DNA of 64,000 nucleotides from NCBI GenBank assembly GCA_041583775.1, contig JBFHFF010000001.1:27528-91527 (forward strand), written 5' to 3'. Below, piece after piece: positions 3,315 through 10,451 of this stretch. Position 1 is the stretch's first letter. Each line of letters starts with the position of its first letter. Source of the stretch: Candidatus Moraniibacteriota bacterium. Its GTDB lineage: Bacteria; Patescibacteriota; Minisyncoccia; Moranbacterales; DUUL01. A program made the position numbers and the translations under genes. The notes under the pieces are model-generated. The model saw only the letters and a list, made by a program, of their open reading frames with translations. It was not told the DNA's origin and did no database searches.

Positions 3315-3488
3315 ATGGCACGTTGCAGCGCTTGCGGTAAGAAGACTATGTCAGGAAACTCACGTTCTCATTCAAATATCGCTACAAAAAGAACTTTCAA
3401 AGCCAACATTCAGACAAAGCACATTGATGGCAAAAAAGTCAAGATTTGCACAAAATGCATCAAGACTATGAATAAGGTTACTAAATAA
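3315..3488 (+). CDS. rpmB: 50S ribosomal protein L28
   Basis: MARCSACGKKTMSGNSRSHSNIATKRTF matches the bL28 N-terminal signature; track ORF trimmed to this Met. Confidence 0.85.
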   Translation: MARCSACGKKTMSGNSRSHSNIATKRTFKANIQTKHIDGKKVKICTKCIKTMNKVTK

Positions 3489-3605
3489 AGTTATTATTTC
3501 TTTATTTCACAAAATCACGAAAGCCACCAGTTTTCTGAGGGCTTTTTTGCTATTTATTGAAAAATTCCACAAATTTAGACATTCCACTTCCCTTAAAATA
3601 TATTA

Positions 3606-3633
3606 GAAAATAATCTTGACAAAAGACTTCATT
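3606..3633 (+). promoter_or_regulatory. Consensus sigma70-type promoter (TTGACA-16nt-TATAAT)
   Basis: ttgaca at 3606-3611, tataat at 3628-3633, 16 nt spacer. Confidence 0.6.
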
Positions 3634-3640
3634 TGACTAT

Positions 3641-3766
3641 AATTATTTTTGCGTGATGGATGAAATTGTTGTTTTTAGTTACTTCCGCCTAGCCGCAGAA
3701 AAAAACAAGGAAAACGACGATGTCTATCACCAACGCCTGGGTACATACATTTTTTGTACCCAGGCA
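3641..3766 (+). ncRNA. Candidate small RNA or cis-regulatory leader (about 125 nt) bracketed by consensus promoter and intrinsic terminator
   Basis: Predicted TSS about 7 nt after the -10; no SD-led ORF; ends in a strong terminator hairpin with U-run; internal gtgat/atcac pairing potential. Confidence 0.35.
3725..3766 (+). terminator. Intrinsic terminator
   Basis: gcctgggtaca ... tgtacccaggc 11 bp stem followed by atatttttt. Confidence 0.8.
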
Positions 3767-3898
3767 TATTTTTTAAATAAACAAACTCATTAATTTATTT
3801 TATTTTAAATTTTTTACAGATACATCTTTCTCTTGCCAGAAACCAGAAAAAGGTTTATTATAAATTATTTACTAATTCGCCAAATCATCAATAATGCC

Positions 3899-5191
3899 AT
3901 GAAAATTAACACAAAAGACCAACTCATCTTTGACATTGCCGTTATTGGTGGTGGAGCTTCTGGAATGATGGCTGCTATTTGGGCAGCTGAATCCGGTGCC
4001 AAAGTTGCACTCATTGAAAAAAATCAAAAATTGGGAAAAAAACTTCTGATAACAGGAAAGGGTCGCTGTAATATTACTCAAGAGAATTTCACAAAAGACA
4101 CTCTTTTGGAAAATATTGGAAGAAATGGAAAATTCCTCTTCTCTTCCTTTGCAAAGTTTAGCGTCGAAGATGCCAAAAAATTCTTCGAGGAAGAAGGAGT
4201 TGAACTAAAGATTGAAAGAGGTGGACGGATTTTTCCAAAATCAGATTCCGCAGAAGAAATTGTTACTGCACTTAGAAATCGTCTCGCAAAAAATAAGGTT
4301 GTTGCTATTCGTAATAATAAAATTGTTGCTATTCAAAACAAAGATGGTTTCATTACAGGACTTTCAACAAAAAAAGGAACTGTATTAGCAAAACAATTCA
4401 TTCTTTGTACTGGAGGAAAGTCTTATTCTGGAACTGGATCAACCGGTGATGGATATACTTGGGCAAAAGAAATGGGACATTCTGTTATCGAGCCCATGCC
4501 TGCACTAACTCCAATGAAAACTCGTGATAAATGGATTGAGATGGTGACTGGTCTTACTTTAAAAAATGTAGGATTGCAGGTAACGCAAAAAGGGATAAAA
4601 AAAGATGAAAGATTTGGTGATATGCTTTTTACACACTTTGGTGTTAGTGGCCCAATAGTTTTAGATATGAGCAAAAAAGTCGGTCAATTATTAAAAGAAG
4701 GTGAGGTTCAACTCTCCATTGATTTAAAACCAGCTCTGGATTTTGAAGCGCTTGATAAGAGAATACAACGAGACTTTCAAAAGTATCAAAACAAACAATT
4801 CAAAAACTCTCTTGAGGATCTTTTTCCTAAAAGATTGATTCCCGTGATGATTAGTCTTTCAAAGATTAATTCAGAAAAAAAGGTTAATAAAATTTCTAAA
4901 GAAGAAAGGCAAAATCTTGTAAAATTAACCAAAAATCTCCTCTTAAATGTTACTGAATTAGAAGGGTTTGGTCATGCCATCATCACAGCCGGAGGAATTA
5001 ATTTGAAAGAAGTTAATTCACAAACAATGAGGTCTAGAAAAATTGAAAATCTATATTTCGGAGGAGAAGTTCTCGACCTTGATGGTCCAACGGGGGGATA
5101 TAATCTTCAAATTTGCTGGAGCACTGGACATCTCGCTGGAATAAGCGCAGCAAAAGCAATCGAAACGCTTGAGAGCGAAATTGAAGAATAG
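3899..5191 (+). CDS. NAD(P)/FAD-dependent oxidoreductase, HI0933/BaiN-like flavoprotein family
   Basis: N-terminal FAD dinucleotide-binding motif DIAVIGGGASGMMAA, family-typical length and internal motifs; start set at MKINTK. Confidence 0.8.
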   Translation: MKINTKDQLIFDIAVIGGGASGMMAAIWAAESGAKVALIEKNQKLGKKLLITGKGRCNITQENFTKDTLLENIGRNGKFLFSSFAKFSVEDAKKFFEEEGVELKIERGGRIFPKSDSAEEIVTALRNRLAKNKVVAIRNNKIVAIQNKDGFITGLSTKKGTVLAKQFILCTGGKSYSGTGSTGDGYTWAKEMGHSVIEPMPALTPMKTRDKWIEMVTGLTLKNVGLQVTQKGIKKDERFGDMLFTHFGVSGPIVLDMSKKVGQLLKEGEVQLSIDLKPALDFEALDKRIQRDFQKYQNKQFKNSLEDLFPKRLIPVMISLSKINSEKKVNKISKEERQNLVKLTKNLLLNVTELEGFGHAIITAGGINLKEVNSQTMRSRKIENLYFGGEVLDLDGPTGGYNLQICWSTGHLAGISAAKAIETLESEIEE

Positions 5192-5357: not shown

Positions 5358-6014
5358 TTAAATGCTAAGAAGTTTTTTCACTATTGGACACTCTTCGTGT
5401 TTATGTTTTTTCGCTGGGCAAAATTTCCTTCCATAGTCAATTAGTCTGTGATTAAAATTAAGCCATTCTTTTTTAGGTACAATTTGAATTAAATCTTGTT
5501 CGATTTTTTCTGGATTTTTCTCCGTCGTTAATCCGTGTAAAATGGAAAGTCTTCTAACATGGGTGTCCACAGCAATTCCTTCGATCCTTCCGAATCCATC
5601 TCCTAGAACAATATTTGCGGTTTTCCTTGCAACCCCTGGCAGCGTGAGTAGTTCCTCCATTGAATCAGGGACTTTTCCTTTAAAATTTTTCTTAATTATT
5701 TTAGTTGTTGCAAGAATATTTTTTGCTTTATTTCGATAAAAACCAGTTGAATGGATATCTTGTTCAAACTCCCTTATATTCGCCTTTGAATAATCATCAA
5801 TTGTTTTGTATTTTTTAAAAAGCTTCTCGGTCACTTCATTAACTTTTTTATCAGTGCACTGGGCAGACAAAACAACAGCAATTAAAAGCTCCAATGTATT
5901 AGAAAAATTAAGCGCAATTTTTGACTTGGGAAAAAGTTCTTCTAATTCCTTGATTATGATTAGTGCTATTTTTTTTCTCTTATCAAGTTCTTTTTTTGAA
6001 ATTTCTTTTTTCAT
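5358..6014 (-). CDS. nth: Endonuclease III (HhH-GPD DNA glycosylase/AP lyase)
   Basis: HhH motif LPGVARKTANIVL, catalytic region; the C-terminal Fe-S Cys cluster looks reduced (only two Cys). Confidence 0.8.
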   Translation of the reverse strand: MKKEISKKELDKRKKIALIIIKELEELFPKSKIALNFSNTLELLIAVVLSAQCTDKKVNEVTEKLFKKYKTIDDYSKANIREFEQDIHSTGFYRNKAKNILATTKIIKKNFKGKVPDSMEELLTLPGVARKTANIVLGDGFGRIEGIAVDTHVRRLSILHGLTTEKNPEKIEQDLIQIVPKKEWLNFNHRLIDYGRKFCPAKKHKHEECPIVKKLLSI

Positions 6015-6679
6015 TTTGCTAGTTCTGATTTAAAAAGTTCCTCTGGAGAAACAGCATCTTCAATCCTAAAATCACCCACTCTTGTTCGCACTAACCGAGT
6101 CAAATAACCACCTGTTTTCAATTTCTCCCCAATTTCCCTTGCCAAAGATCTAATGTAAACACCTGGACCAGTAACAACTCGGAGTTGCAAAGTTGGCCAT
6201 TCATAAGCAAGAATATCGATTCTTTCAATATATACAAATCTTGGTGGTGGTGTAAATTTCTCTCCTCTCCTAGCCTTTTTATACCCTTCTTCCCCACCAC
6301 CAACTTTCGCAGCGCTATATACTGGAGTTGTTTGAATAATTTCTCCTGTAAATTCTTTTTTTAACTTCTCTATCTCTTTTATTGTTGGAATTTTTTCACA
6401 GGCGATTTCAGTTTTCTCACCCTCTTCATCATCAGTAACGCTTGTCATTCCAAGTTTTATATCAGCTAGATATTCTTTTTCTTTTGCCACAACCTCACTT
6501 ATCTGTTTGGTATATTCACGCCCCACTGCAACAACTAAAACTCCTTCTGCCAAAGGATCTAATGTGCCAGCATGCCCTATCTTCTCTTTTTTAGTGCCAC
6601 CAACTAAGCGTTTAATTTGTCCTACAATTGCATAAGAGGTTGGACCTTTAGGCTTATTAATTGCAAAAATTCCTTTCAT
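6011..6679 (-). CDS. truB: tRNA pseudouridine(55) synthase TruB
   Basis: GHAGTLDPLAEGVL catalytic Asp motif; 4 nt overlap with nth. Confidence 0.85.
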   Translation of the reverse strand: MKGIFAINKPKGPTSYAIVGQIKRLVGGTKKEKIGHAGTLDPLAEGVLVVAVGREYTKQISEVVAKEKEYLADIKLGMTSVTDDEEGEKTEIACEKIPTIKEIEKLKKEFTGEIIQTTPVYSAAKVGGGEEGYKKARRGEKFTPPPRFVYIERIDILAYEWPTLQLRVVTGPGVYIRSLAREIGEKLKTGGYLTRLVRTRVGDFRIEDAVSPEELFKSELAK

Positions 6680-6680
6680 T

Positions 6681-7289
6681 TTATAGTTTATATTTAATCT
6701 TAAACGATCCCTCTCTTAAAATATTCACTTTATTGTCTAAGATTTGAATTAAAGTTGATGTCTTGTTAACGATTTTTCCTCCATCAACATAGAATTCTAC
6801 TTTTCCTTTGAAATATTCCTTAGCCTCTACTATTGTATTTGCTTGTGATTCTCCCTGCGGATTAGCGCTGGTTGCAACAAGTGGACCAGTTTTTTTTAGA
6901 AAATTTAAAAATTTTCCTTCTCTTGGAAGACGAAAAGCAATAGACTGAAGACCTCTGTGTAAATACCTAAATCCTTCTTCTTCACACTTTAAGACAACAC
7001 TCACTTCACCTGGCCAAAAATTTTTAATTTTTTCCTCAACTGACTTTTCCAACTTTATTCCAAACAACTTAAGATCTGAAATTTTAGAAATTGTCACAAT
7101 AAATGGTTTATTTAATTCTCTTTTACAAATTGTATATACCCTCTCCACAGATTCAGGATTTGTTGCACTACAAACAATGCCATAAACTGTGTCTGTTGGG
7201 ATAACCCCTATTTCACCTTTTATAATTCGTTCAACCAACTCTTTTTCAAATTTTTTAAATTCACCAATTCTTTTCATCTGCCCTTCCAA
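6681..7289 (-). CDS. tsaC: L-threonylcarbamoyladenylate synthase (Sua5/YrdC/YwlC family)
   Basis: IPTDTVYGI and the family-typical central region. Confidence 0.8.
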   Translation of the reverse strand: MEGQMKRIGEFKKFEKELVERIIKGEIGVIPTDTVYGIVCSATNPESVERVYTICKRELNKPFIVTISKISDLKLFGIKLEKSVEEKIKNFWPGEVSVVLKCEEEGFRYLHRGLQSIAFRLPREGKFLNFLKKTGPLVATSANPQGESQANTIVEAKEYFKGKVEFYVDGGKIVNKTSTLIQILDNKVNILREGSFKIKYKL

Positions 7290-9420: not shown

Positions 9421-9494
9421 TGGTCGGGCCGCCGAGAGTCGAACTCGGGCTACACACACCCCATGCGCGCGTACTACCGTTATACTACGGCCCG
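9421..9494 (-). tRNA. tRNA-Pro (anticodon GGG), CCA encoded
   Basis: Cloverleaf folded by hand: acceptor CGGGCCG/CGGCCCG 7 bp, U8, D-arm GTAT/GTAC, anticodon stem CGCGC/GTGTG with loop ATGGGGT (GGG at 34-36, G37), T-arm CCGAG-TTCGACT-CTCGG, discriminator A, CCA. Confidence 0.9.
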
Positions 9495-9880: not shown

Positions 9881-10060
9881 TTATTTTCCCAAAAACTCCT
9901 TAATCCTAATTCTCTTCTTTTCTGTTAATCTTTTTCTTGCTTTGAGCTCTCTTGAAGAGAGCTCATTAGCAGCTAAGTGCCCTCCTCCTTTCAATGCGCA
10001 CATTTTTCTTTCTGCATTGGCAATTTTAATTTCCATCTTTCTTTTGGCCTTTCTGGACAT
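9881..10060 (-). CDS. Small, strongly basic hypothetical protein (59 aa), not in the ORF track
   Basis: ATG preceded by GGAGGG with 5 nt spacing; MSRKAKRKMEIKIANAERKMCALKGGGHLAANELSSRELKARKRLTEKKRIRIKEFLGK; two hairpins downstream; sits in a 1 kb non-coding island. Confidence 0.45.
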   Translation of the reverse strand: MSRKAKRKMEIKIANAERKMCALKGGGHLAANELSSRELKARKRLTEKKRIRIKEFLGK

Positions 10061-10451
10061 TGAACCCTCCTTTTTTTAAAAAAATCACCCTACTCGTTTT
10101 GACCTAATTGCAATTTTGCAATTTAAGCCAGGAAAAAAACGCAATTAACTTACGCTCTATTCCAGACTTAGGTCGTTTTTAAAAAACTAATCATTAAATC
10201 TACTAACACCACCAACCTTCCTTATCAAAAAGGTTACTACTTAGAAAAACACTACTTTGTCCACAATTATACAAATATGTCAATATTTGTCAACAAAATT
10301 TATCAAAAAAACAAATTTACTAGCCCAAATTTATTTTAAAAATGGAACACCTTTATTCATTTTTTAGCTCATTTTTAATAACAAAAGAAATCATTGAACT
10401 TCTATGTTTCAAAAAATAAAGCTATTTTTTTACTTTTTTGAGCATCAATAA

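Follow-up and report, generated by a model that had tools for sequence, protein, structure and literature searches.

We analysed a stretch of 64,000 nt from a Candidatus Moraniibacteriota bacterium (GenBank assembly GCA_041583775.1, contig JBFHFF010000001.1, positions 27,528 to 91,527 of the forward strand), referred to here as the window. Its G+C content is 33%. The organism belongs to the Patescibacteria, or Candidate Phyla Radiation (CPR), whose members have tiny genomes and few recognisable regulators. Between rpmB and a flavoprotein gene of the HI0933 family, a first-pass annotation had marked positions 3606-3766 as a noncoding unit bracketed by a promoter and a terminator, either a stand-alone small RNA (sRNA) or a transcription-attenuating riboswitch or leader. 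The unit itself stood up to analysis, and the proposed range had left out the U-tail, which runs to 3774. The unit is made up as follows.

3616 to 3643, plus strand: promoter of the small RNA (-35 TTGACA at 3616-3621, 16-nt spacer, -10 TATAAT at 3638-3643), agreeing with the consensus at 12/12 positions
3651 to 3774, plus strand: predicted small RNA of about 124 nt, its 5' end placed from the conserved GCGU and its 3' end from the U-run
3653 to 3730, plus strand: long imperfect hairpin domain (P1, GAA bulge, P2, apical helices)
3653-3661/3722-3730, plus strand: P1, 9 bp
3662 to 3664, plus strand: GAA bulge between P1 and P2
3665-3676/3710-3721, plus strand: P2, 12 bp
3678-3680/3704-3706, 3683-3685/3698-3700 and 3687-3688/3695-3696, plus strand: three short apical helices
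3689 to 3694, plus strand: apical loop CUAGCC, the sole conserved unpaired segment
3735 to 3774, plus strand: intrinsic terminator of the small RNA (stem 3735-3745/3755-3765, 9-nt loop, tail AUAUUUUUU)

The search for homologues covered the 80 best loci that carry a relative of the flavoprotein, 37 metagenome loci retrieved by motif pattern, and two viral loci; the Patescibacteria loci amount to about 0.9 Mb. Retrieved loci are denoted by L numbers, and MAG stands for metagenome-assembled genome. Three further variants were obtained.

L011, 2233-2357: homologue in the MAG SI034_bin78, flavoprotein identity 80%; identical copies in L090, L110 and L113
L006, 3751-3871: homologue in UBA2772, flavoprotein identity 73%; also in L007, L008, L012 and L105
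L091, 1-92: homologue with flavoprotein identity 74%, its 5' end lost at the contig end

All three lie directly upstream of the flavoprotein gene and on the same strand, and the primary identity among the small RNA homologues is 54-59%. A covariance model based on the copies in the window and in L011 gives a score of 47 bits for L006 (E 1.5e-8) and one of 32 bits for L091. A second covariance model and an nhmmer profile recover exactly these four variants from the Patescibacteria loci and nothing else. Two other loci, L063 and L107, were inspected as family members and rejected. The boundary of the family falls between 73% and 60% flavoprotein identity. In L002, L004 and L005, which retain the flavoprotein gene and its promoter, the element was not found at the corresponding slot; it is dispensable at the flavoprotein site. 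The RNA family is real but narrow, being confined to one Patescibacteria (Moraniibacteriota-like) clade.

The signals at both ends of the unit are strong. The sigma70 promoter, described earlier as near-perfect, fits the consensus throughout, and perfect sites of the form TTGACA-N16-TATAAT are rare: two occur in the 64 kb on both strands together, against 0.09 expected from shuffles. The homologous promoters, TTGACA-16-TACAAT in L011 and TTGACA-16-TATATT in L006, each agree with the consensus at 11/12 positions, and the -35 element is extended to TTGACAAA in these two copies and in the window. The GCGU at the predicted 5' end of the RNA is conserved and begins 6-8 nt past the -10 element. At the other end, the 11-bp terminator with a U-run was likewise borne out. 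Its arms, GCCTGGGTACA (3735-3745) and TGTACCCAGGC (3755-3765), form 11 bp with 100% complementarity, ATATTTTTT (3766-3774) follows directly 3' of the stem, and the hairpin contributes about -21 kcal/mol. A simple terminator scanner missed it because the loop is longer than 8 nt and the T-run begins 3 nt past the stem, but it did flag the terminators of the L006 and L091 homologues. GC-rich stems of 11-14 bp followed by U-runs are found in all four variants, and the U-run is offset from the stem by 1-5 nt across them.

The predicted transcript is highly structured. The segment 3650-3778 has a folding energy of -46.9 kcal/mol (z = -6.9). For the hairpin by itself (3650-3733) the value is -25.3 kcal/mol (z = -4.4); none of 200 shuffles was as good, and the minimum-free-energy structure is identical to the centroid. 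The homologues also fold better than expected by chance, with z = -5.0 for L011 and z = -6.6 for L006. The internal pairing of GTGAT with ATCAC that the first-pass annotation had seen does exist, at 3653-3657/3726-3730 instead of 3647-3651/3714-3718 (6-12 nt off), and it constitutes just the base of the 9-bp plus 12-bp helix. In L011 and L006 the apical loop is CCAGCCA, and in L091 it is CCAGCCC; its columns C43, C44, A46, G47, C48 and C49 are invariant in the alignment described below. The bulges and internal loops differ by lineage in both length and sequence (GAA, A, UAAGUU). As a separate observation, the apical region 3686-3694 resembles the terminator 5' arm 3734-3742 at 5-6 of 9 positions, in one common register, in all four variants (CGCCUAGCC vs CGCCUGGGU in the window; AACCCAGCC vs CACCCAGUG in L091). 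A pairing between the apical region and the terminator arm was considered and rejected: the register was picked post hoc, and energy folding gives no support to it.

The first-pass annotation had suggested a comparison of the region in related genomes, and this comparison revealed conservation together with compensatory changes in L011, L006 and L091. We used a hand-curated alignment, A6, which covers 9 bp of P1, 12 of P2, 5 of P3, 3 of P4 and 14 of the terminator. Standard pairs fill 96.3% of its 136 cells, and 23 of the 43 pairs are changed on both sides (P1, 4; P2, 4; P3, 2; P4, 2; terminator, 11). Across the four variants, 92-100% of the cells in P1 to P4 are paired, and 11 of the 14 aligned stem pairs of the terminator are altered on both sides. 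When the 3' partners were slid by 1-3 columns as a control, the pairing fell to 36-45%, with 0-3 compensatory pairs. Because A6 was fitted to the structure, we also ran an uncurated MAFFT alignment with RNAalifold on the three full-length copies. This recovered P1, the core of P2 and the terminator, and 14 of its 30 pairs were compensatory. The promoter, fold and terminator are therefore kept at 54-59% identity by way of many compensatory changes, which indicates purifying selection on an RNA. We are confident that the locus holds a real, conserved transcription unit for a structured RNA.

We next consider whether the unit could encode a protein. One open reading frame (ORF) is available.

3656 to 3793, plus strand: ORF of 45 codons, called as a gene on a public contig and judged here not to be a gene

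It had been claimed that no ORF led by a Shine-Dalgarno sequence (SD) lies between promoter and terminator. This proved correct: the sole frame runs from GTG 3653 or ATG 3656 to 3793 (45-46 codons), has no SD and is not conserved. Two points favour a small protein gene: the frame is annotated as a gene on Logan contig SRR29257461_27395, and its ATG is only some 5 nt away from where transcription is predicted to start, as would suit a near-leaderless mRNA. The details speak against it. The genome uses strong SDs elsewhere (AAGGAGG ahead of a 59-aa ORF at 10060), and this frame has none. It traverses the terminator hairpin and stops past the U-run. Its product matches only itself among 5.8 billion protein clusters and has no Pfam match. 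The equivalent ATG frame of L011 ends after 10 codons, and L006 has no ORF longer than 28 aa. Finally, the substitutions compensate one another within base pairs and are not of the synonymous kind. We regard the small protein reading as already largely refuted and give it very little weight.

The next question was whether the RNA belongs to a known family. At gathering scores, cmscan of the whole window against Rfam 15 returned one tRNA only; tRNA-Pro (GGG), at 9421-9494 on the minus strand, is the sole tRNA and the sole Rfam match in the 64 kb. The cmscan check of the region itself, also suggested by the first-pass annotation, matched no Rfam family: over 3480-3920, with permissive filters and E <= 10, it gave 14 chance-level matches, none of them ZTP (RF01750). 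The best matches in the region were to eukaryotic snoRNA and miRNA models, at chance level, and L20_leader reached 16.5 bits against a gathering score of 58.7. No Rfam match at gathering score was found in the L004, L002, L005 and L006 loci, of which L006 carries a homologue. Signal recognition particle RNA, 6S RNA and known sRNAs were dismissed as candidates, having no match in Rfam 15.

Two short strings in the unit had earlier been called loosely reminiscent of conserved blocks of the ZTP (pfl) riboswitch. The strings exist, as CGUGAUGG (3652-3659) and CGCCUGGG (3734-3741), and their likeness to ZTP blocks is an impression of the first-pass annotation. The resemblance did not survive closer inspection. 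The second string, CGCCTGGG (3734-3741), is not a block ahead of the terminator but the 5' arm of the terminator itself. In the homologues CGCCUGGG is replaced by CGCCCGGG, GCGUCCAGCG and GCACCCAGUG, and changes in the 3' arm compensate. In place of a conserved 3' pseudoknot element of the ZTP type (CCGCCUGGGC-like), the window thus has a covarying terminator arm. RF01750 gave no match, whether at the gathering score or at E <= 10. ZTP riboswitches accompany genes of purine or folate (one-carbon) metabolism, and the downstream gene here is not a purine or folate gene. That the element is a ZTP riboswitch, or a member of another known family diverged past recognition, has a negligible probability in our view. 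Since none of the Rfam families, papers and database entries searched describes it, we treat it as a new RNA family, which is of the familiar promoter-to-terminator kind of bacterial sRNA and has a tiny known membership.

The genes on either side bear on how the unit may work. The neighbouring features are the following.

3315 to 3488, plus strand: rpmB (ribosomal protein L28), the upstream neighbour; 57 aa; Pfam PF00830 Ribosomal_L28, E 1.4e-15
3519 to 3549, plus strand: intrinsic terminator of rpmB, a hairpin with a U-run; 3500-3560 folds at -14.5 kcal/mol (z = -3.4)
3833 to 3861, plus strand: putative promoter of the flavoprotein gene itself (TTGCCA, 17-nt spacer, TATTAT; 10/12 consensus), about 38 nt before the ATG
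3899 to 5191, plus strand: flavin adenine dinucleotide (FAD) flavoprotein gene of the HI0933-like / TIGR00275 type, the downstream neighbour; 430 aa

On the upstream side, rpmB is also kept in L004 and L002, as is the sequence of its terminator. This terminator shields the small RNA unit from upstream transcription. On the downstream side, the flavoprotein matches Pfam PF03486 (E 1e-84) and PF22780 and NCBIfam TIGR00275 (462 bits). The coding gene had been placed about 130 nt after the terminator, and this agrees with our result: its start is ATG 3899, not TTG 3833, and lies 125 nt past the U-run of the small RNA. Among the 80 best loci, the closest public relatives of the flavoprotein come from MAGs of Patescibacteria/CPR, namely 'Candidatus Moraniibacteriota bacterium' (89%) and 'Patescibacteria group bacterium UBA2772' (73%). 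The flavoprotein ATG has no recognisable SD in any of the four genomes (3862-3901 and the equivalents in L011, L006 and L091), unlike other genes of the window, which do have strong SDs. The public JGI gene call for the flavoprotein orthologue of L001-L003 (504 aa) has an over-extended N terminus.

With its position ahead of the flavoprotein gene, the element could be a cis-acting leader or attenuator. A ligand or protein would suppress the terminator, and the strong promoter would then feed the gene on top of the gene's own weaker promoter. In all four carriers the element adjoins the flavoprotein gene in the same orientation despite differing upstream neighbours, and the 1-5 nt offset of the U-runs could make termination leaky. 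However, several results speak against such a switch. First, a conserved candidate promoter separates the terminator from the ATG; it occupies the same place in L011, L006 and L091 and is retained in the non-carriers L004, L002 and L005. Second, the spacer of 120-145 nt between terminator and ATG is otherwise poorly conserved and rich in indels (33-55% identity, 11-21 gap columns). Third, no antiterminator could be folded in the window, L011 and L006 transcripts. When the 3' arm of the terminator is left out of any of these three, the 5' arm stays unpaired and the long hairpin remains intact; when the terminator is blocked, 20-26 kcal/mol are lost and no alternative structure appears. In addition, the variation of the bulges and internal loops from one homologue to another means that there is no conserved ligand pocket, the apical loop alone being conserved, and no Rfam riboswitch matched. 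These results led us away from the riboswitch or attenuator option of the first-pass annotation, which we consider unlikely.

We also compared the contents of the slot among relatives. Within the clade, the stretch from rpmB (or its equivalent) to the flavoprotein gene is a hot spot where gene content changes (window 3480-3900 compared with L001/L002, L004, L005, L006 and L011). Depending on the lineage it is occupied by genes for an ArsB/CitMHS transporter, CBS-domain proteins or HAD hydrolases, by one small RNA, or by another RNA-like unit. The flanks are collinear, with M50 peptidase, L10 and L7/L12 on one side and nth, truB, Sua5, DUF5684 and GDH on the other. In L001/L002 (flavoprotein 89%) the slot holds ArsB/CitMHS and CBS genes, and in L005 (77%) HAD, CBS and ArsB genes.

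The slot of L004 (flavoprotein 88-89%; same contig as L010) holds an unrelated unit of about 270 nt that is also bracketed by a promoter and a terminator. It lies between the rpmB terminator and the flavoprotein promoter, at L004:3594-3885, which equals L010:2094-2390 (Candidatus Moraniibacteriota MAG JBFHIG010000007.1). Its features are a TTGACA promoter, a stem that closes it between the 5' and 3' sides, and a strong terminator, and its fold has z = -3.5. It contains no ORF longer than 37 aa, has no Rfam match and has no copy in any other fetched locus. Possibly it is another small RNA gene, distinct from the one studied here, that has taken the place of the latter. It was rejected as a homologue of the window RNA, the alignment covering the flanks only.

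Such a changeable slot raises the question of whether the element could be a relic without function or an inserted mobile sequence, for instance a palindrome resembling a miniature inverted-repeat transposable element or the leftover of a deleted cassette, with signals that arose by chance. The hot-spot character of the slot and the absence of the element from three close relatives at this site would fit that reading. The element itself does not: it is a single copy in the window without a repeat family, it has no convincing terminal inverted repeats or target duplications, and nothing similar was found in the phage database or viral contigs. The retention of promoter, fold and terminator through compensatory changes, noted above, also argues against a relic, and we judge this explanation very improbable. 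The idea that the small RNA is a remnant of the genes found at the relatives' slot was rejected as well; when 3550-3830 was compared by blastn with all fetched loci, the only matches were chance 10-19-mers.

We then asked what the flavoprotein family could tell us about the RNA. The HI0933/PF03486 family includes E. coli YhiN (RdsA), an FAD/NADH-dependent 23S rRNA dihydrouridine-2449 synthase (PMC11317573). One explanation is therefore that the RNA is a partner of an adjoining RNA-modifying flavoenzyme, as a substrate mimic, a decoy, a regulator or a substrate. The conserved adjacency to the flavoprotein gene is in keeping with it, as are the presence of an rRNA-modifying enzyme in the family and the link of some members to RNA-modification genes (PMC11317573). 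The flavoprotein also carries a PF22780 barrel/H2TH domain, and the neighbourhood is rich in genes for translation and RNA modification (rpmB, L10, L7/L12, truB, Sua5). An RNA-modification role for the flavoprotein in a metabolically minimal CPR genome seems plausible. As an observation on the locus, the gene sits among L7/L12, L10, L28, truB and Sua5/YrdC (1250-2264, 3315-3488 and 6011-7289).

Because YhiN (RdsA) belongs to the family, we ran a mimic and complement test around 23S U2449, with E. coli rrlH as a proxy in place of the organism's own 23S rRNA. The RNA showed no similarity to 23S 2431-2470 beyond that of shuffles (fraction at least as good, 0.41-1.0) and no preferred complementarity to it, the windows of this peptidyl transferase centre (PTC) region ranking 88-330 of 575 for duplex energy. 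A mimic of, or guide to, the region around U2449 was rejected for want of a signal against rrlH. The GGCUG motif, which could pair with the loop, occurs nine times in E. coli 23S rRNA, and the enzyme persists in three relatives that lack the RNA at this site. PF03486 is also not isofunctional (PMC11317573). The closest solved structures to the flavoprotein are 2i0z (Bacillus-type, 291 bits) and 4cnj (aminoacetone/L-amino-acid oxidase, 244), both nearer than HI0933 itself (2gqf, 168). The partner explanation is accordingly improbable, less so than a relic but more so than an attenuator. More broadly, the small RNA might be tied functionally to the downstream flavoprotein as substrate, as decoy or regulator, or as a conditional read-through element. 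We hold this doubtful: the adjacency across three upstream contexts is the sole positive hint of a tie, and the rRNA-mimic and attenuator tests were negative, although binding to the protein is still conceivable.

We prefer to read the unit as a self-contained gene whose product is a structured RNA of about 124 nt, independently transcribed, restricted to one lineage and acting through its loop. We assign a probability of about 0.55 to this full statement. The separate flavoprotein promoter, the failure to fold an antiterminator, the lack of a conserved pocket and the retention of the gene where the element is absent all favour an independent small RNA. As predicted from four related sequences, the unit has what is expected of an sRNA gene: a promoter of its own, a Rho-independent terminator of its own, a structure that covaries in three lineages and no conserved frame. 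The stand-alone sRNA option of the first-pass annotation is supported on each of these points.

The preferred reading would work as follows. A sigma-70-type RNA polymerase would start at or just before G3651 from the perfect consensus promoter. The transcript would fold into one long irregular hairpin, P1 to P4, and transcription would end at the very stable intrinsic terminator, two nt past the hairpin. The long covarying stem would then display the conserved C-rich apical loop C(C/U)AGCC. This loop would most probably be the functional site: it could act as a seed that pairs with a GGCUGG-like sequence in an RNA encoded elsewhere in the genome, or it could be bound by a protein. To judge from their sequences, the four loop versions are all able to pair with 5'-GGCUGG-3' (in the window copy by way of one G.U pair), and such pairing might have a functional role. 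Crude duplex scans of the translation-initiation regions of nearby genes did not favour that of the flavoprotein gene, which came 58th out of 77 in the window and last out of 6 in L011. The ends of the transcript, its action in trans and any role of its loop are presumed.

Several points weigh against this interpretation. The transcript and its ends are predictions. The covariation statistics are weak in number, since there are only four variants and one of them is truncated, and the best alignment, A6, was fitted by hand. The apical domain has diverged most in the window copy, with a 6-nt loop and without the AAUUCGA segment common to the other three. No target was found: GGCUGG is absent from the neighbouring genes in the L011 and L006 loci, and the GGCUGG sites of the window are at chance level and lie inside coding regions or far from start codons. 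Neither Hfq nor ProQ is known to be encoded in Patescibacteria. Moreover, the element keeps its place and orientation immediately before the flavoprotein gene although three different genes (rpmB, CBS and HAD) occur as its own upstream neighbour, and a trans-acting RNA unlinked to the flavoprotein leaves this persistent adjacency unexplained. Some read-through into the flavoprotein gene is conceivable, since the U-runs start 1-5 nt past the stems.

The second perfect TTGACA-N16-TATAAT site of the window lies at 10266-10293 on the minus strand. A structured leader of about 200 nt follows it (z = -3.1), which includes a hairpin with a U-run around 10150-10128. After the leader comes the 59-aa ORF, at 9881-10060 on the minus strand, which is rich in Lys and Arg, has an AAGGAGG SD and has no Pfam match. 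The minus-strand unit 10293-9881 may be another small RNA, a leader or a gene for a small basic protein.

In the literature searched, we found no description of an sRNA from Patescibacteria/CPR and nothing that connects HI0933 with a riboswitch. The element is a clean sRNA candidate in the Patescibacteria, with a consensus promoter, a covarying hairpin, a conserved loop and a terminator, and it offers a concrete object for asking whether these bacteria use RNA-based regulation at all. The analysis also corrects an annotation, in that the 45-aa 'hypothetical protein' on the public contig becomes an RNA gene, and it removes a false riboswitch lead. The persistent linkage is a testable hint on the poorly understood HI0933/YhiN flavoprotein family. 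If the tie to the flavoprotein were true, no RNA partner or regulator of this enzyme family would have been described before this one, and it would be among the first regulatory RNAs with an assigned role in CPR bacteria. The importance of the finding is moderate, because the family is small and has no assigned function.

We finally compared the unit with known systems. What it shares with ZTP riboswitches (RF01750) is a position upstream of a gene, an intrinsic terminator at its end and short strings that recall ZTP blocks. Unlike these riboswitches, it has no covariance-model match, no pseudoknotted two-domain architecture and no antiterminator, a predicted promoter stands between RNA and gene, and the flavoprotein context is wrong. 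Attenuating leaders and riboswitches in general share with it the order of promoter, structured RNA and terminator directly upstream of a gene, in gene orientation and with conserved synteny. It differs from them in the second conserved promoter before the gene, in the lack of a mutually exclusive fold and of conserved junction nucleotides, and in being dispensable in relatives that keep the gene. The autoregulatory leaders that mimic rRNA, such as those of ribosomal proteins, are comparable in that a structured RNA lies beside a gene from a family with an rRNA-binding enzyme among its members (RdsA/YhiN; PMC11317573). In contrast to such leaders, the window RNA does not resemble 23S around U2449 beyond chance and lies outside the mRNA of the gene, and the RNA-related function of this flavoprotein subgroup is putative.

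The last comparison is with stand-alone bacterial sRNAs that have an intrinsic terminator and work by way of a C-rich apical loop, such as RsaE/RoxS of the Firmicutes. The window RNA has no sequence or covariance-model similarity to the sRNAs in Rfam. It consists of one long hairpin instead of several short ones, its loop is C(C/U)AGCC and not a C-run complementary to the SD, and its host belongs to the Patescibacteria. In general design the two are alike. Both are noncoding RNAs of about 100-125 nt, with a sigma-70-type promoter of their own and a Rho-independent terminator as the 3' domain, and in both the stems covary and a short C-rich single-stranded loop is conserved.

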